DNA of 59,698 nucleotides, the filler included. It is 6 parts of 6 records of this genome, joined end to end, with 100 filler letters (N's around TTAATTAATTAA, not from the genome) between each part and the next. Parts side by side here need not be neighbours in the genome. Positions count along the whole stretch, not along the records: positions 10,798 to 27,380 come from SRR20825006_2858; 5 more parts are not named here. One strand, given 5' to 3'. The first letter of the stretch is position 1. Every line of letters starts with the position of its first letter. Shown one piece after another: positions 11,214 through 21,048 of the stretch. The translations under genes and the position numbers were made by a program. The notes below the pieces were generated by a model, which was given only the letters and a program-made list of their open reading frames with translations, had not been told where the DNA came from and did no database searches.

Positions 11214-14063
11214 TTAGAATGAAAGCCCTGCTCTAAGCATTATTCCAGAAGTCCCTCCGCCTGATTGCAGACCAATACCTCCAGAGATAAACTTAAATTT
11301 AGCACGAGCTCCTAGCTCTAGCCAGCTTGGTGCTGTAGCATTAGATATAATTCTATCACCATTGCCCTGTGCTTTGTTTGTAGCTTTAAAGTCAACTAAG
11401 CTTAAAGCATTCCAATGATACGATGCATAAGGAGATATTTTGATCTCGCTCACCTTCATATTATATCTTACTCTAGCCATTAACGGAACGCCAATTCCTA
11501 TTAGATAACTATCAATCTTATTCCCTGTTGCTGGAAAATCCGTAGTTGTTTTGTTATAAACCATGTAAGCACTCAGGCCGTAATCAAAAGAAAGAGGCAG
11601 TTTGGTAAGACTACTGATGTCTTTAAAGCGATTCCATTCTACTCCTCCACCGATTGCATCACCTAAAAAGTAGCCCCAAAAATTACGCTCGCCTTTACCT
11701 GAAGCAGAAAACAGTGCAACGCCTGCTCCTTTTACTTGTGTATAGCCATGTGAGCCACCACCAGTATGCGTTAAGAAAGAAATACTTGTGCCACTAAAAG
11801 CGCTTATATCATCTCCTGCTGAATCAATAAACCATGCTTCTGAGAGGCTATTAGAAGAACTTCTCTTTCTTGTATTGGTGTTGCGAGTGTTTGTGGTTGC
11901 AACAGTATTTGAATTATAGTTGTTGTTATCATAACAAGCAGCACCTTTTGGTATACCTCCAGCAATTGCAGCCTGACGATATAATTCATACAGATTCTCA
12001 CTAGAAGCTTCTTTTTCAACTTGTTCTGCAAGTAACCCACCGGTGCCTTCTTGGCTACCGCTACTTAGTACTTTCACTTCAACACGACGGTTTTCTTGGC
12101 GGCCTTCAGCGGTTTCGTTTGTTGCTCGAGGATCATTCTCTCCATATCCTTTTGCAGAAATTCTCGCACTAGAAATCCCTTTATTAATTACATAATTAAC
12201 TACAGATTCTGCACGTGCTTGGCTCAATTCCATGTTAGTATCATCAGAACCAACGTCATCCGTGTAACCACCGATTTCGATAACTAGAGTTGATTGAGTC
12301 ATGATATCGAATAAACGGTCTAGCTCTTGCTGACTTTCATCTCGTAGATTTGCACTACCAGTATCAAAGTAGATATTCTCAAGAACGATGCGAGCGCCTT
12401 CGTTAGCTTCAGTAAGAGAGATATCTTTGCGAACTTCTTTGTAGCCTGAATTATCTTCTAAAAAGCTCATTCTAGATCTACGAATGGCATCATTCAAATC
12501 TGCTTGAGCTTTATTCATCTCTTTACTTAGCTCTGATAAACGGTCGTATTGATCATCTAAATTTGAGGAGTTTGATGAAATGAGGATCTCGTATTCATTC
12601 TTACTGTCATCAATTCTTTTGAGTGCATTTCGCATTCTAAATAACTCTGGCCCTAGCTTTTCTGAGAACGCTATAGAATCTTCAACCATGGTTTTCAAAT
12701 CTAACATTTCAGACTGAAACAGATAACCTTTTTGGTTTGCTGTGATTAGATATCTTCTCCCAAATGGTAAGTTGATAAGATAATCTCCAGTTCTAGAGTT
12801 ACTAGTTGCATATCCCAACTGCTCACCTGTATCAAAATCTGTCCAAAATAATGTCGCAGCAATTAAGCTATCGTTTTGATTGGTAATACTTCCGTAGATA
12901 CTTACTACTGGATCTGGACGCATATCTGCAGGTAAAATCAATCTGAAGATGTCATCATCACCAAAACCATCATTTCCCTCACCTGTTGTACTCCTTGTAA
13001 AATAGGCTACCGTTCCTGACGCCGGTATTGTCAAATCTTCATCGTTTACAACTGAGTTTATATTCTTACCCAAGTTTACAGGGGTAGTCCAGTTCTCCCA
13101 TCCATCGCCTATTCTTCGTGTAACAAACACATCTTGACCTCCAAATCCTGCGTGTCCATCTGAAGAGAAATATAAAGTTCTGCCATCAGCGTTTAAAAAT
13201 GGCCACACTTCGCTTTTTGGGGTGTTAATTACGTTAGAAATTGGCTTAGGGGTTGTCCAAGCTCCATTCTGTAAATGGGTGATATAAATATCCGTCTCGT
13301 AATCTGCATCCTCTTCGCTCTTGCGATCTTTGTATGCTACAAATATTAAAGTTTTCCCGTCTGGCGAAAGGTTAGCCATCGACTCCCATTCATCTGAGTT
13401 CACATCTCCACCCATATTACAAGGAGTGGTCCATCTATCACCTACTTTAGCGCTATAAAAAAAATCGCCGCCGCCGAAACGACCTTCGTAGTTTCCAAAA
13501 ACGATTGCTGTATTTCCATCAGCTGACATAGATAAAATCCCCTCGTGGCTATCAGTGTTAATAGTTGAGCCCATATTTAATGGCTTTCCCCAATTACCAT
13601 CACTCTGTTTGTTAGTATACCAAACATCACCGCCTCCAAATCCATTATCACGGTCTTTGGAATAGAAATACATTTTATTTCCATCTGACGAAATTCGTGG
13701 AAGTATTTCTCCAAGGCTAGAATTTATATTCGCTCCTAAATTCTCAATGTAAACATCTTCTTCTGGACCTTTTAATAGATTTATAATGGTATTCACATCT
13801 GCCTTTTTCGCTTTTGGATATTTATCGCGATATGCCTCATACATAGATATCGCTTTATCCCATTCTTTAAGTGCGGTATAACTTTTACCAGCCCACAGAT
13901 AAAATTCTGGATCTTTGACAGCCGCTTGTTCATATTTATTAGCAGCCTGTTTATACTTTCCGCTATCGTATAAATCGCTCGCACTTTGAGCCGATAGCGA
14001 GTTTGTGTATGTGGCGATTAGAATTGCAAAGAGCATTCCTAAGCCGATTCTATTAATTTTCAT
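11214..14063 (-). CDS. Exported TPR / PD40-repeat / OmpA-C peptidoglycan-binding protein (PorE-like architecture) with an extra C-terminal beta-rich domain
   Basis: Signal peptide; TPR-like helices; repeated INS/INT...P...DG.T.YF.S.R..GFGG.D PD40 motifs; NIYFDTGSA...IGGYTD...NMELSQARA...GRQENRRVEV; about 200 aa amphipathic tail ending GLSF. Confidence 0.85.
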   Translation of the reverse strand: MKINRIGLGMLFAILIATYTNSLSAQSASDLYDSGKYKQAANKYEQAAVKDPEFYLWAGKSYTALKEWDKAISMYEAYRDKYPKAKKADVNTIINLLKGPEEDVYIENLGANINSSLGEILPRISSDGNKMYFYSKDRDNGFGGGDVWYTNKQSDGNWGKPLNMGSTINTDSHEGILSMSADGNTAIVFGNYEGRFGGGDFFYSAKVGDRWTTPCNMGGDVNSDEWESMANLSPDGKTLIFVAYKDRKSEEDADYETDIYITHLQNGAWTTPKPISNVINTPKSEVWPFLNADGRTLYFSSDGHAGFGGQDVFVTRRIGDGWENWTTPVNLGKNINSVVNDEDLTIPASGTVAYFTRSTTGEGNDGFGDDDIFRLILPADMRPDPVVSIYGSITNQNDSLIAATLFWTDFDTGEQLGYATSNSRTGDYLINLPFGRRYLITANQKGYLFQSEMLDLKTMVEDSIAFSEKLGPELFRMRNALKRIDDSKNEYEILISSNSSNLDDQYDRLSELSKEMNKAQADLNDAIRRSRMSFLEDNSGYKEVRKDISLTEANEGARIVLENIYFDTGSANLRDESQQELDRLFDIMTQSTLVIEIGGYTDDVGSDDTNMELSQARAESVVNYVINKGISSARISAKGYGENDPRATNETAEGRQENRRVEVKVLSSGSQEGTGGLLAEQVEKEASSENLYELYRQAAIAGGIPKGAACYDNNNYNSNTVATTNTRNTNTRKRSSSNSLSEAWFIDSAGDDISAFSGTSISFLTHTGGGSHGYTQVKGAGVALFSASGKGERNFWGYFLGDAIGGGVEWNRFKDISSLTKLPLSFDYGLSAYMVYNKTTTDFPATGNKIDSYLIGIGVPLMARVRYNMKVSEIKISPYASYHWNALSLVDFKATNKAQGNGDRIISNATAPSWLELGARAKFKFISGGIGLQSGGGTSGIMLRAGLSF

Positions 14064-14350: not shown

Positions 14351-14896
14351 ATGAATTTATTTCGTTCAAATATCCCCAAAATCTATGTAACGCTTACGCT
14401 CTTAATAAGCTTTGCGCTGCATTTTATGCAACCGGTTAGCGAGTCGGCTAAGCATTCTGCGTTTACATCGTGGTTAGGTACCCATCTAGTTAACGATGAC
14501 GATGCGAATGTGCGTAAACAACTAAAAGAGTTGGGGAATTCTACGGATGAGTTAGAAGCGATTATTAGAAAGGCTTCTGAACTTGTTACAACGAATGCAG
14601 AAGACTTCGAACTTGATTTTCAGAAGTCTGATCAGAATGAAATATTCAAACTTTTGCTTACTGAGTGGAATTCTTATATGGATTCTCAACAAGGTATGGC
14701 GAAAGGGGTTGTTATTACCTCTCTAAAATCAAATGCTATTCAGCAGAATGATGGTAAAACACTTTTTAAAACAACTTTTCCTGATGTAAACTCACACAAA
14801 GTTTACCTTTCAAACTCCATTCGCTTTCAAAAGGCTTTATCAGTTAGTTCTACTACTGAACCTCTTGCCTTTGGGATTGCTATAGGCGCCCCATAG
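14351..14896 (+). CDS. Hypothetical secretory/membrane protein upstream of secD (candidate translation-arrest monitor peptide)
   Basis: 181 aa; hydrophobic segment IYVTLTLLISFALHFM near the N-terminus; ends PLAFGIAIGAP-stop. Confidence 0.7.
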   Translation: MNLFRSNIPKIYVTLTLLISFALHFMQPVSESAKHSAFTSWLGTHLVNDDDANVRKQLKELGNSTDELEAIIRKASELVTTNAEDFELDFQKSDQNEIFKLLLTEWNSYMDSQQGMAKGVVITSLKSNAIQQNDGKTLFKTTFPDVNSHKVYLSNSIRFQKALSVSSTTEPLAFGIAIGAP

Positions 14897-15058
14897 CACC
14901 CAATAAGTAACTTCAGGTATATTTATGAGAGCAGTTACTATATATAGCTTGCTCTACTTAATTTCTAGTTCCATAGAGAATCTAGCTGTTGCCTGATATT
15001 CTTATTCTCTTTCGAATTTATTTTTAAAACTAATATTTAACATATAATCTAATACACC

Positions 15059-16870
15059 ATGCAAGGAAACGGATTCAAAATTGGCCTTATAGTAGCTTTT
15101 GTGGCCATGACTCTCTACTACCTGTATCCAACCGTAATCTGGGGATTGGAACAGAAACAAATAAGCGAGCTCACTACTGAAGAGAGCGCTCAATATGAAC
15201 TTGAAAATGCAGAACGCTTAAAAAGCATTAAAGAGAAAACGCTTAATCTTGGTCTTGATCTCCAAGGTGGTATGCACGTAACTCTTGAAGTTGGTACACC
15301 TCAACTTGTTCTTGAATTATCTGGAGCTGATCGTGACAGTGTTCTTAACAATGTTGTTGCAGAAGCTCGTGTAAATGCATTAGCAAACGACACTGACTTT
15401 ATCGACGAAATGCTAGTTGCTTATGAAAATCGCGATGCTAACGCTCGTTTAAGCCGTTACTACCGTAATGATGCAGCAAGTATTACGCGCCGTTCTACCA
15501 ACGATGAAATAATCACTTTTCTTAAAGCTCAGCGTACAGAAGCGTTAAATAGAGCTATTGAAATTATTAGAACTCGTGTGGATCGCTTTGGTGTAACTGA
15601 GCCTTCCATCATTAAACAAGGAAACGACCGTATTGTGGTTGAACTTCCTGGTGTAGATGACAAAGAACGTGTTCGTAACCTACTAAAAGGAACTGCTCGT
15701 CTTGAATTTAGATTAGCTGCTGATGGAAAAGACTTTCTATCATTTATCCAAAAAGTATACGACTACTACTCTCAAGTACCTGAAGCTGGTGCTGACAGTT
15801 TAGAACAAGCTTTTTCTAATCCATTGATGGATGCATTAACTCCAGGCGACAATTCTTATGTTCTTGGCTACGCCCAAGATGCCGATACATCTCGTGTAAT
15901 GGCTTTGATTAAAGATCCTGCTGTTCAGAGAATGTTACCTAGAAACACTACGGTTATGTGGGGTGCAAAACCTACTAGAAATAGTTCTGGAGCAAGCATT
16001 GGTTATCCTCTATACGGTGTAAGAACTCAAGTAGAATTAACTGGTGATGTTATTGAAGAAGCGAGCGTACAGTTCGACCCTGCTACCAACGTACCTGAAG
16101 TTTCTATGTCGATGAACGCTGCTGGCGCTCGTCGCTGGGGAATCATCACTGGTGCAAACATTGACAAGCCTGTTGCTGTTGTTCTTGATGGCTACGTTTA
16201 TACTTATCCAAACGTGAACACAAAAATTACTGGCGGCCGTTCTACAATTGAAGGAATGGAAAATGTTCAAGAAGCTGATGACCTTGTAAACATTCTTCTT
16301 TCTGGTGCTCTTCCAGCTCCTCTTGAAATTCTAGAAGAACGTACTGTAGGCGCAACCCTTGGTGAAGCTTCTATTAATGCAGGTTTAAACTCTGTATTTA
16401 TTGGTTTAGGTATCGTAGCCATTTTTATGATTGTTTACTACCGCACTGGTGGTGCAGTAGCCGATATCGCATTGCTACTTAATATTGTATTTATACTTGG
16501 TATTCTAGCTGGCTTCAGAGCTACGCTAACACTTCCTGGTATTGCTGGTATCGTATTAACAATTGGTATGGCGGTAGATGCCAACGTACTAATATTTGAT
16601 CGTATTAGAGAAGAGCAACGTAGTGGAAAAACTATGAAAGCTGCCATCTCGGCGGGTTACTCAAATGCAATGAGCGCAATTATTGATGCCAACGTAACCA
16701 CAGGTTTTGTGGCAATTATTCTACTGAGTTTTGGAGTAGGCCCAATTAAAGGCTTTGCTGTAACTCTATTAGCTGGTATTTGCTGCTCACTATTTAGCGC
16801 AATCATTATTACACGTGTAGTAATCGATTACTTAACTCGCAACAAAGCCGATGCTGTTAGCTTCGGTTAA
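15059..16870 (+). CDS. secD: Protein translocase subunit SecD
   Basis: LNLGLDLQGG, RVDRFGVTEP, IVVELPG, GALPAP, TLPGIAGIVLTIGMAVDANVLIFDRIRE. Confidence 0.97.
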   Translation: MQGNGFKIGLIVAFVAMTLYYLYPTVIWGLEQKQISELTTEESAQYELENAERLKSIKEKTLNLGLDLQGGMHVTLEVGTPQLVLELSGADRDSVLNNVVAEARVNALANDTDFIDEMLVAYENRDANARLSRYYRNDAASITRRSTNDEIITFLKAQRTEALNRAIEIIRTRVDRFGVTEPSIIKQGNDRIVVELPGVDDKERVRNLLKGTARLEFRLAADGKDFLSFIQKVYDYYSQVPEAGADSLEQAFSNPLMDALTPGDNSYVLGYAQDADTSRVMALIKDPAVQRMLPRNTTVMWGAKPTRNSSGASIGYPLYGVRTQVELTGDVIEEASVQFDPATNVPEVSMSMNAAGARRWGIITGANIDKPVAVVLDGYVYTYPNVNTKITGGRSTIEGMENVQEADDLVNILLSGALPAPLEILEERTVGATLGEASINAGLNSVFIGLGIVAIFMIVYYRTGGAVADIALLLNIVFILGILAGFRATLTLPGIAGIVLTIGMAVDANVLIFDRIREEQRSGKTMKAAISAGYSNAMSAIIDANVTTGFVAIILLSFGVGPIKGFAVTLLAGICCSLFSAIIITRVVIDYLTRNKADAVSFG

Positions 16871-16905: not shown

Positions 16906-17817
16906 ATGAGATGGTTTGAATCACCAAACATTAATTTTGTAGGTAACAGAAAGGTTGCCTACATAGTATCAACTATTTTAGTTTTGATATCTATAGGTGC
17001 CATAGTTACAAAAGGGCTACAATACGGAATCGATTTTAAGGGTGGTAAAGAAATTATCCTTAAGTTCGACCAACCAATTGACGCCACAAAGATACGAGAT
17101 GTACTGTCTGAGCCCTTAGGCTCTGCACCAGAAGTAAAGCTTTTTGGTTCTGATAGCGAAGTACTTATCCGTACCGAAAACTTGTCGGATATGGATGTAA
17201 TTGAGAACATAATTGTTACAACTTCACAAACGGCTTATCCCGGCTACAAAGTAACCGTAGAGAAGTCTGATAAGGTAGGGCCTAAGTTTGCAGAAGATCT
17301 CAAAGCGAGTGCTTTGGAATCGGTAATCTATGCCATTGCCATTATCTTCTTCTACATTTTAATTCGATTCCGTAATTGGACATTCTCCGCTGGTGCGGTA
17401 CTCGCTCTGATGCATGATGTTATCATCACATTAGGAGCTTTTACCATTCTCAGCAGCTTTGTTAGTTTCAGTCTTTTAATCGATCAAAATATAATCGCTG
17501 CTTTCTTAACTATTGTGGGTTACTCGCTCAACGACACCGTGGTTGTATACGATAGGATTAGAGAAAATAGCAATGTTCACAAAGGAATGGATTATATTCC
17601 GATGGTTAATAAAAGTCTAAACGACACTTTAAGCCGAACTGTAATCACTTCATTAACTACCTTGTTTGTGGTTCTTGTGCTGTTTATTTTCGGGGGTGAG
17701 GTGTTAAAAGGATTTTCTTTTGCCCTTATAATCGGTATTGTTCTTGGTACATATAGTTCTTTATTTGTTGCCAGTGCATTAGTGGTAGAACTTGAAGCCA
17801 AAACAAAGAAATCCTAA
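16906..17817 (+). CDS. secF: Protein translocase subunit SecF
   Basis: GIDFKGG, VGP, HDV, GYSLNDTVVVYDRIRE, TLSRTVITS, GTYSS. Confidence 0.97.
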   Translation: MRWFESPNINFVGNRKVAYIVSTILVLISIGAIVTKGLQYGIDFKGGKEIILKFDQPIDATKIRDVLSEPLGSAPEVKLFGSDSEVLIRTENLSDMDVIENIIVTTSQTAYPGYKVTVEKSDKVGPKFAEDLKASALESVIYAIAIIFFYILIRFRNWTFSAGAVLALMHDVIITLGAFTILSSFVSFSLLIDQNIIAAFLTIVGYSLNDTVVVYDRIRENSNVHKGMDYIPMVNKSLNDTLSRTVITSLTTLFVVLVLFIFGGEVLKGFSFALIIGIVLGTYSSLFVASALVVELEAKTKKS

Positions 17818-17839: not shown

Positions 17840-18184
17840 ATGAGCTTTAATACGTCTGAACGTTACAATAGTGTAGTTATCGAATTTAAAGGTAACGTAA
17901 TGGGTGGCCCGGATGCGGTTAGCCTGAACGAAAAACTTCATGAGCTAATCGACGCTGGGAAAAACAACATTGTTGTAGATCTTGGTAAGGTAAAGTTTAT
18001 GAATTCTTCTGGACTTGGAATGCTGATTGGCGCGCTAACAACCATGCGGAAAGCTGGTGGCGACCTTCGCATTGCAAATGCAACCGATAAAATCGAAAGC
18101 TTACTTATTGTTACTAAGCTTATCACAGTGTTCAAGCACTTTAAATCGGTTGAAGAAGCTGCTGAATCATTCAACGAAGCTTAA
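17840..18184 (+). CDS. STAS-domain anti-sigma-factor antagonist (RsbV/SpoIIAA-like)
   Basis: IVVDLGKVKFMNSSGLGMLI. Confidence 0.9.
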   Translation: MSFNTSERYNSVVIEFKGNVMGGPDAVSLNEKLHELIDAGKNNIVVDLGKVKFMNSSGLGMLIGALTTMRKAGGDLRIANATDKIESLLIVTKLITVFKHFKSVEEAAESFNEA

Positions 18185-18199
18185 ATGATTCGTTTCTAA

Positions 18200-19534
<1,335 letters not shown>

Positions 19535-19890: not shown

Positions 19891-21048
19891 TCACTTCCCT
19901 TCCAACCAAGAATACGGATAACTAGGATCGTCTAAACGCATTCCTTCCTCAGTTACAAAAAGCGGCTTAAAGGTATCTATCATCACGGCGTATTCATCCG
20001 TTGCTTCAGCACCAATACTTGCCTCCGCTTTTCCTGGATGCGGCCCATGAGGAATACCTCCAGGATGAAGGGTAATACTCGCGAAATCCATTCCTTTTCT
20101 ACTCATAAAATCGCCTTCAACGTAGTAAAGCATTTCGTCTGAATCTACATTGGAGTGATTATAAGGTGCAGGAATAGCGTCAGGATGATAATCGAATTTA
20201 CGCGGACAAAAACTACACACCACATAGTTATTAGCTGCAAAAGTTTGATGAACGGGCGGCGGCTGATGCACTCTCCCCGTAATCGGCTCAAAATCTTTAA
20301 TGTTGAAAATCCATGGATACAAATAACCATCCCAACCAACTACATCCAGCGGATGATGATCGAACCAATAGTGATGCATCCTCCCTCCTTTTTTTATACG
20401 AACTTCAAATTCGCCTTTCTCTTCGAAGTACAATTGTTCGGAAGGAAGCCGAAAATCTCGTTCACAAAACGGAGAATTTTCCATCAATTGTCCCATATCG
20501 GAAAGGTAACGTTTTGGAAATCCAATGGGCCCCGTTGAATCTACACACAGAAACCGATTTTCGGTGGTTTCAAAATTCATTTGGTACGTGGTTCCTCGAG
20601 GAATGTAAATGTAATCGCCATATTCAAAATCGAGTCGACCGAAATTAGTCTGGACATGGCCTTTTCCTTCATGGATAAACAATAGTTCGTCGTGCTCTCC
20701 ATTTCGATAGAAATAATTCATAGAATCGGTTGGGCGAGCCACCCCAATTTGAACATCGTTATTGAACATAAGCACTTTTCTGGCTGTAATGGAGTCTCCG
20801 CCAGCAGGAACATCCTTCGTTTTAAGATGCCTATGTCTCAACATCTGATTATCTGTCGCTTTTATCTCAATAACCTCGCCTGCCTCAATCCTAAGAACTC
20901 TCGTAGGCATGTGATAGTGATAAAGGAGCGAACTATTTCCATGAAATCCTTCAGCCCCAAAAAGCTCTTCGGTAAAAAGCTCACCATCTGGGCGTCGAAA
21001 AACGGTATGCCTCTTATGAGGAATGGTTCCTAAAGAATGGTAATACAT
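19891..21048 (-). CDS. hmgA: Homogentisate 1,2-dioxygenase
   Basis: HPLDVVGWDG, RVHQPPPVHQTF, PYNHSNVDSDE, HPGGIPHGP. Confidence 0.95.
   Translation of the reverse strand: MYYHSLGTIPHKRHTVFRRPDGELFTEELFGAEGFHGNSSLLYHYHMPTRVLRIEAGEVIEIKATDNQMLRHRHLKTKDVPAGGDSITARKVLMFNNDVQIGVARPTDSMNYFYRNGEHDELLFIHEGKGHVQTNFGRLDFEYGDYIYIPRGTTYQMNFETTENRFLCVDSTGPIGFPKRYLSDMGQLMENSPFCERDFRLPSEQLYFEEKGEFEVRIKKGGRMHHYWFDHHPLDVVGWDGYLYPWIFNIKDFEPITGRVHQPPPVHQTFAANNYVVCSFCPRKFDYHPDAIPAPYNHSNVDSDEMLYYVEGDFMSRKGMDFASITLHPGGIPHGPHPGKAEASIGAEATDEYAVMIDTFKPLFVTEEGMRLDDPSYPYSWLEGK

Follow-up and report, generated by a model that had tools for sequence, protein, structure and literature searches.

What is the function of an open reading frame that stands directly before secD and matches no known protein family? 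The question arises in a stretch of 59,698 nucleotides (nt) of DNA, here called the window, in which an upstream open reading frame (uORF) of 181 amino acids (aa) occupies positions 14351-14896 on the plus strand, starts with ATG, and is followed in the same orientation by secD. Its coding end reads ...SSTTEPLAFGIAIGAP, with the final codons ATA GGC GCC CCA and then the stop codon TAG. Arrest peptides that report on protein export form a small and well-studied set, and each new motif has revealed another way to jam the ribosome. The original prediction, made from the letters of the DNA, had proposed that the uORF encodes a new arrest leader of this secretion-monitor kind, acting on secD-secF. 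The current work suggests that the uORF is probably a Sec-targeted leader of the secD-secF operon and a stop-codon arrest peptide of the uDF_NAP-stop class. An exported secDF leader with a putative arrest motif, probably stalling at termination, is supported; the claim of novelty is not, because the class was published in 2024 (Fujiwara, Tsuji, Yoshida, Takada and Chiba, Nat Commun 15:2711; PMC10987492). The uORF is not a new kind of leader.

Conservation, position and anatomy of the leader

The clearest signal lies in the last residues of the protein. Conservation was expressed as mean relative entropy per region in an alignment of 177 distinct full-length members of the family. Residues 171-181, PLAFGIAIGAP (14861-14893), a putative arrest motif, are the most conserved 11-residue segment of the protein at 2.68 bits, against 0.46 bits in residues 126-165 of the preceding linker and 1.42 bits in the middle region. 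The original prediction had read the ending PLAFGIAIGAP-TAG correctly, and the peak of conservation that it expected there is present. The motif can be written as P-[LMF]-x-x-G-[ITV]-[AS]-I-[GN]-A-P-stop, with conservation of 94% at P171, 93% at I178, 93% at A180 and 99% at P181; GIAIGAP, the ending found in the window, is also the commonest in the family (47 of 177). Pro is the last residue in 131 of the 138 stored family proteins, which end in GAP (77), NAP (45), HAP (4) or one of five other sequences found once each; the seven others comprise six fragments or odd sequences and one protein ending in NAH. In the background sample, 400 kb of the nearest genome (G001), Pro is terminal in 5 of 244 open reading frames of at least 150 aa, and Ala-Pro in none of the 244.

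Codon choice for Ile, Gly/Asn, Ala and Pro varies freely across 66 distinct uORF ends; Pro, for instance, is encoded by CCT in 27, CCA in 20, CCC in 12 and CCG in 7. Because the codons of the motif vary synonymously, the constraint acts on the peptide and not on the RNA, and selection on the C-terminus of the leader is thus at the amino acid level. The same 66 ends carry TAG in 49 cases, TAA in 14 and TGA in 3, with TAG found in 25 of 34 genera, whereas the 244 background frames of G001 use TAA 145, TAG 64 and TGA 35 times; on a tree built without the motif, the residue at position -3 switched between Gly and Asn at least 9 times and the stop codon changed at least 13 times, and these stop-codon and -3 figures describe a tendency among related genomes, not a test.

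Conservation of position is strict. In the window, the uORF ends 162 nt before secD (15059-16870, plus strand), the presumed regulated gene, which encodes 603 aa with the Pfam domains SecDF_P1_head, SecD_1st and SecD_SecF_C and matches NCBIfam TIGR01129 at 431 bits. It is followed by secF (16906-17817, plus strand; 303 aa; Pfam SecD_SecF_C, 193 bits; NCBIfam TIGR00966, 305 bits). A word-indexed protein search returned five relatives of 181-183 aa, one of them from a metagenome-assembled genome (MAG) of Balneolaceae, and a profile of these six sequences matched 135 of 1.84 billion representative proteins at E values up to 0.001, nearly all of 170-200 aa. The closest relatives come from Balneola sp. 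and Balneolaceae MAGs, in agreement with the Balneolota/Rhodothermota-like lineage named in the original prediction. In a search of the order centred on G001, the profile matched 168 of 201 genomes, including 129 of the 134 in the window's own family. Seventy loci were then fetched, 30 as the best matches and 40 picked for diversity, and in every one of the 70 secD is immediately preceded by a co-oriented homologue at a distance of 75-216 nt, so that the linkage to secD proposed at the outset holds throughout. The recurrence of the gene and of its position goes far beyond chance.

The ending Ala-Pro-stop is found in 69 of these 70 loci. In the odd one out, L035 (G015:C1:1467340-1471400), the uORF is frameshifted within the linker and its annotated frame ends ...KSGQFE, while ...PLASGIAIGAP-stop is present in another frame; this locus holds either an assembly error or a broken leader. 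Of the 33 genomes of the order without a profile match, five were sampled together with G007, and all six have a uORF upstream of secD that ends in [G/N/R]-A-P-stop. The five sampled uORFs, 120-181 aa long, are recognised by a richer family profile at E values from 1e-35 to 5e-4. Two of them are without the central helices and one is without most of the middle region; both ends and the position before secD are retained.

The family extends beyond the order. SecD was searched for in 141 genomes of the phylum, and the upstream regions of 60 secD genes were fetched. In each of the 13 sampled genomes that represent other orders of the same class, secD is preceded by a uORF of 167-200 aa whose N-terminus is hydrophobic and which ends in ...PMGP, PLGP, ALGP, PQGP, PRAP or ARAP and then a stop codon (TAG 10, TAA 2, TGA 1). 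An hhalign comparison of these uORFs with the Balneolales family gave 80% probability and an E value of 1.6e-6. Among the remaining 46 loci of the phylum, only two (L105 and L106), which belong to one family and precede a fused SecDF gene, have a uORF ending in P-N-A-P-stop; these uORFs are 113 and 119 aa long.

Upstream of the motif the leader has three further regions, of which structural predictions were obtained from an AlphaFold2 model built on 73 sequences. Residues 1-30 (1.51 bits) combine a basic n-region of the form M-x-x-F-R-x-H-I-x-R/K with a hydrophobic segment. The model places a helix at residues 3-25, after the conserved R5 and K/R10, and the hydrophobic stretch covers residues 11-26; residues 1-25 (14351-14425) are therefore predicted to be a Sec signal or an N-in signal anchor. 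The n-region is strikingly conserved for a signal peptide (R5 82%, H7 66%, I8 71%); at the centre of the hydrophobic helix, the conservation of Gly20 reaches 81%. Residues 31-125 form the moderately conserved middle region, with W41 (98%) and W106 (97%) near-invariant. A four-helix domain, expected to be exported, is predicted at residues 27-114 (14429-14692), with helices at 27-44, 52-62, 68-81 and 95-114; in blocks of 10 residues, the mean predicted local distance difference test score (pLDDT) is about 88-96 over residues 31-110. A Foldseek search of the model against the PDB returned no match at E values up to 0.001, and a wide VIA-align search gave a best Z of 7.2, to generic helical arrangements without a functional lead. 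From residue 117 to its end the chain is predicted to be disordered and without secondary structure, with block mean pLDDT of 46-70 from residue 121. This part includes the hypervariable linker, residues 126-170 (14726-14860).

The anatomy set out in the original prediction is largely borne out by these data, in that the N-terminal hydrophobic export segment corresponds to the predicted helix 3-25 behind conserved basic residues, and the soluble middle to the confidently predicted helical domain. The Ser/Thr-rich spacer is a milder feature than was proposed: Ser and Thr are enriched in the linker, but only to 12 of 45 residues against 33 of 181 in the whole protein. About 150 residues separate the end of the helix, at residue 25, from residue 181. 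With the ribosome at the stop codon, the linker would, on this model, span the ribosomal exit tunnel and reach the translocon. The anatomy of the leader and its strict synteny with secD are shown by the present analysis.

Relationship to published arrest leaders

The account of the uDF_NAP-stop class used here rests on the consulted parts of PMC10987492. In that study, 30,175 genomes of GTDB r202 were screened for uORFs of secA, secDF and yidC that encode fewer than 300 aa, are of unknown function, and have an N-terminal signal and a conserved C-terminus. The uDF_NAP-stop class comprises 396 uORFs from 400 genomes in three orders of GTDB Bacteroidota, located upstream of secDF and ending in Pro-stop; it is made up of six MMseqs2 clusters (uSecDF_26, 4, 55, 61, 86 and 9), which the accompanying script supplements with Rhodothermales uORFs that have RAP or RGP as their ending. 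The genome list places Balneola vulgaris and Gracilimonas tropica in phylum Bacteroidota, class Rhodothermia, order Balneolales (PMC10987492). A single representative of 125 aa, in a construct labelled uSecDF_Echin_vietn, was tested. Peptidyl-tRNA made up 30-50% of its product in the E. coli PURE system, a share that exceeded 50% when B. subtilis ribosomes were used; its stalling needed the stop codon, which the toeprint placed in the A site, and was weakened by N123A (position -3) and P125A (position -1) (PMC10987492). As for later work on the class, a literature search found only the 2024 paper and its preprint, and the consulted parts of the LudP preprint and of an EMBO J 2025 paper do not treat it.

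The uORF in the window shares the layout of this class, a co-oriented reading frame directly upstream of secD or secDF with a localisation signal, a long spacer and an ending of the type x-A-P-stop. It is well below the size limit, is separated by 162 nt from the co-oriented secD downstream of it, and matched no family above threshold in Pfam and NCBIfam. Its basic n-region and hydrophobic stretch, with the predicted helix, correspond to the N-terminal signal or transmembrane segment of the class. P181 and A180 give it a terminal Pro with an N-A-P-type ending in which the window has Gly at -3, and 45 of the 138 stored family proteins end exactly in N-A-P. The distance of about 150 residues between signal and arrest site compares with more than 30 for the class, and long spacers are also reported for Sec monitors in general (PMC10987492). 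Its relatives, Balneola and Balneolaceae, belong to an order that stands under p__Bacteroidota in the published genome list (PMC10987492). The differences from the tested representative are the G-A-P ending in place of N-A-P, and a length of 181 aa with a folded helical domain in place of 125 aa. On the strength of these features, the uORF is filed here as a further putative member of the uDF_NAP-stop class, a long Balneolales form with a G-A-P ending.

This locus adds no new kind of leader, and its value lies in a large natural data set of more than 170 distinct sequences from one homologous family. What is added here is a family of about 180 aa that reaches related orders, alternates between Gly and Asn at -3, and mostly stops at TAG; the family defines an 11-residue motif in which Gly and Asn are interchangeable at -3 and TAG is preferred.

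Among leaders of known mechanism, the E. coli tryptophanase leader TnaC inhibits the release factor and so stalls the ribosome at the leader's stop codon, Pro-tRNA occupying the P site. TnaC is 24 aa long, is not exported, needs free tryptophan, stops at UGA (read by release factor 2, RF2), and blocks the loading of Rho. The leader in the window would resemble it in a stop-codon stall with Pro-tRNA in the P site, which is a proposal for this leader; the two have no sequence similarity, and the window leader is predicted to be exported, would presumably respond to translocation force, and belongs to a family that mostly stops at TAG, the codon of release factor 1 (RF1). The original prediction had pointed to the missing Arg and to a TnaC-like stall at termination, and this agrees with the result obtained for the tested member of the class (PMC10987492).

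SecM, the leader of secA, and VemP, the leader of Vibrio secD2F2, share with the uORF an N-terminal signal, a long spacer, a C-terminal arrest motif and a translocase gene downstream; presumably they also share an arrest that holds until translocation pulls the chain. SecM and VemP arrest during elongation and thereby open a stem-loop that hides a Shine-Dalgarno sequence (PMC10987492), whereas the arrest of the window leader would occur at termination, before a secD that has neither a Shine-Dalgarno sequence nor a predicted switch. ApdA, ApdP and the RQH family also stand upstream of secDF, and their presumed role is the same. Their motifs are R-A-P-P-like, and they arrest the ribosome during elongation, when Pro-tRNA occupies the A site. 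A leader of the RAPP type was considered for the window and rejected, as the uORF ends in G-I-A-I-G-A-P and has no Arg and no Pro-Pro in its last 40 residues. A second Pro-stop arrest peptide of Bacteroidota is uA_NSP-stop, found upstream of secA in Sphingobacteriaceae; it has 100 aa and ends in N-S-P, positions -5, -3 and -1 matter, and it is the stop codon that occupies the A site (PMC10987492). It differs from the window leader in its link to secA, its N-S-P ending and its length. In the nearest genome (L157, C5:49831-54702 of G001), no exported Pro-stop uORF was found before secA or yidC; at this locus an rpmH-rnpA-yidC cluster precedes secA on the opposite strand.

Proposed mechanism and alternatives

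The mechanism that we propose starts with the signal or anchor of residues 1-25, which would engage the Sec translocon while the leader is still being translated. At TAG (14894-14896), which is expected to be the A-site codon of the stalled ribosome from the published toeprint of the class (PMC10987492), PLAFGIAIGAP, positioned in the upper part of the exit tunnel while Pro-tRNA occupies the P site, would slow the release factor, and the ribosome would pause as a peptidyl-tRNA complex. The variable linker of about 45 residues would span the tunnel. Translocation, perhaps together with folding of the exported helical domain, would pull the chain and end the pause, the length of which would thereby report the activity of Sec or SecDF; a prolonged pause would raise the expression of secD-secF. 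Stalling by the sequence in the window, its release by translocation and its effect on secDF are steps that we infer, while stalling is published for one other member of the class. In the consulted parts of the 2024 paper, the downstream gene's induction was tested only for a gammaproteobacterial leader of the RGPP type (PMC10987492).

Several observations weigh against this reading. The tested peptide has Asn at -3, where N123A reduced stalling (PMC10987492), and the window has Gly at this position. The compared genomes are related and not independent samples, and counts taken over them overstate their statistical weight. The helical domain is better conserved and more confidently folded than a mere spacer needs, and may therefore serve some purpose besides spacing. 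The short N-A-P-stop uORFs of 113-119 aa, which represent the type of the tested peptide, have no detectable homology to the Balneolales family in hhalign (probability 0.6%) apart from the final residues, and because of this the published class seems to join at least two unrelated protein families with a common ending, the uORF in the window belonging to the long family. RNA-library contigs of relatives, 90-96% alike, map to 14369-14631, 14747-14918, 14986-15207 and 15213-15379; they flank the spacer on both sides and none of them bridges it, and such contigs cannot show transcription or strand. A separate promoter for secD may lie within the spacer.

The coupling of a stall to secD gave further results that point the same way. 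Of 66 loci, 1 has a Shine-Dalgarno-like core before secD, and in the stretch from -20 to -4 A makes up 47% and G 6%. The spacer in the window (14897-15058; A52 C29 G17 T64), which is AT-rich with more C than G and poorly conserved in sequence, folds no better than its shuffles (z -0.44). Pairing between the stall site and the start region of secD is no better than in controls (mean z -0.06), and masking the footprint of a stalled ribosome changed the predicted accessibility of the secD start by a mean of +0.011, with a change above 0.1 in 3 of 66 loci. A terminator-like hairpin was found in 6 of the 66 spacers, where 2.0 are expected. A SecM-type RNA switch is rejected on these results for Shine-Dalgarno sequence, folding, pairing and accessibility, all of which are negative.

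An attenuator based on an intrinsic terminator is likewise not general, with no terminator-like site in the window, sites in only 6 of 66 spacers, and one clear site in a relative of the same genus. Three spacers (L010, L011 and L025) have a 9 base-pair hairpin with (C)ATTCTTAAT after it, some 39 nt ahead of the ATG of secD and with a terminator-like score; the sequences of the stems differ between these loci. Several genera share the box ATTCTTAATT in their A/T-rich secD leaders. In roughly half of the 66 spacers, the strongest local hairpin has its end some 28-54 nt ahead of the secD ATG, a position for which there was no control and which is given no weight.

Other functions have to be weighed against an arrest leader. 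The helical domain has two conserved Trp residues and a confidently predicted fold, and strict co-location with secD would also suit a subunit or partner. The uORF might then encode an ordinary exported or membrane-anchored protein, such as a periplasmic accessory of SecDF, with a C-terminus that serves in binding, sorting or processing and causes no stall. This is quite improbable, however, since two lineages have lost part of the middle domain and a third most of it, and all three keep the signal, the motif and the position. The motif also ends exactly at the stop codon, with Pro far more often last than in the background, and caps a disordered, hypervariable tail, while the fold searches offer no functional lead. 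Moreover, unrelated short secDF uORFs in another family of the phylum share the N-A-P-stop ending, and one N-A-P-stop peptide has been shown to stall (PMC10987492).

Two further explanations accept a slow ribosome at the stop codon and differ in its meaning. A real stall, with the ribosome kept at the translocon by the signal sequence of the leader, might tether the secD-secF mRNA to the membrane so that the polytopic SecD and SecF are made where they are inserted, with no feedback on amount, in analogy with the XBP1u pause of eukaryotes, which serves mRNA targeting. Tethering would need no RNA switch, in keeping with the absence of Shine-Dalgarno sequences and of conserved structure, and it would be suited by the short spacer of 75-216 nt and by two downstream genes that both encode membrane proteins. 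We consider it very improbable all the same, because SecD has an N-terminal transmembrane segment of its own for co-translational targeting and because the Sec and YidC leaders tested so far, according to the consulted parts of the 2024 paper, are feedback regulators (PMC10987492). Still less credence is given to generic slow termination after a C-terminal Pro, in which nothing is sensed and the synteny with secD is a relic of an operon. A C-terminal Pro is generally a poor substrate for release, as is familiar from the literature on Pro-stop ends and SsrA tagging, and this recommends such an explanation, as does the partial stalling (30-50%) of the class in the PURE system (PMC10987492). Eleven residues, however, and not Pro alone, are conserved across the order; position -3 alternates only between Gly and Asn despite its repeated switches on the tree, and it mattered in the tested member of the class (PMC10987492). 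Synteny with secD, moreover, holds in every inspected locus of the class.

If the uORF is a stop-codon arrest leader, as we think probable, the last step of its action cannot be the unmasking of a Shine-Dalgarno sequence in the manner of SecM, because secD has none. The locus sharpens a question, namely how a pause at a stop codon can act across 75-216 nt on the next gene in a lineage where Shine-Dalgarno sequences are not used. One proposal, which we put forward as doubtful, starts from this lack of a Shine-Dalgarno sequence and of any structure that a stall could open. In Balneolales and their class, the stall would control secDF by a route unlike those of known secretion monitors, with the paused ribosome acting directly on the mRNA, possibly by a TnaC-like exclusion of Rho from a C-rich, G-poor spacer; the stall would be specific to RF1, and the conserved, exported helical domain may pull by folding or may bind SecDF. 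An RF1-specific stall would explain the retention of TAG, and a helical domain that pulls or binds SecDF would make the leader a reporter of SecDF activity specifically and not of Sec in general.

The composition of the spacer bears on this proposal. C exceeds G in all 66 spacers of the order, with a median C/G of 1.84, against 45 of 69 control spacers of G001 with a median of 1.22. Elsewhere in the class, in its other orders, the bias is absent: 7 of 13 spacers have more C than G. A Rho-type composition of the spacer is thus suggestive within the order and not in the other orders. G001 has a full rho gene (591.9 bits, open frame of 558 aa) and, in addition, a rho-like gene of lesser length that stays under the cut-off of the family (422 bits, open frame of 418 aa); the two lie at C5:11699-12778 and C9:140769-142385.

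Neighbouring genes and minor observations

The first 26 nt of secD (15059-15084; ATGCAAGGAAACGGATTTAAAAT...) are near-invariant across genera, synonymous sites included, and were found at the same place in 20 loci. The invariant 5' end of the gene contrasts with the spacer before it, which is unconserved.

YajC, a small protein whose gene precedes secD in E. coli, was considered as an identity for the uORF and rejected, as Pfam PF02699 was unmatched at E values up to 0.1; a YajC gene (92.1 bits) sits on a different contig of the nearest genome.

Divergent from the uORF, positions 11214-14063 on the minus strand encode a protein of 949 aa with TPR repeats at its N-terminus, PD40 repeats of the WD40-like beta-propeller type and, at residues 564-658, an OmpA domain. 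About 290 residues beyond the OmpA domain, including an Asn/Thr-rich stretch, are without a family match. On the other side of the operon, directly 3' of secF, a STAS-domain protein of 114 aa of the anti-sigma-antagonist type is encoded at 17840-18184 on the plus strand, and it is followed by adenylosuccinate synthetase at 18242-19534, also on the plus strand. At 19891-21048, on the minus strand, lies a gene for a protein that combines a homogentisate 1,2-dioxygenase N-terminal domain with a cupin domain.

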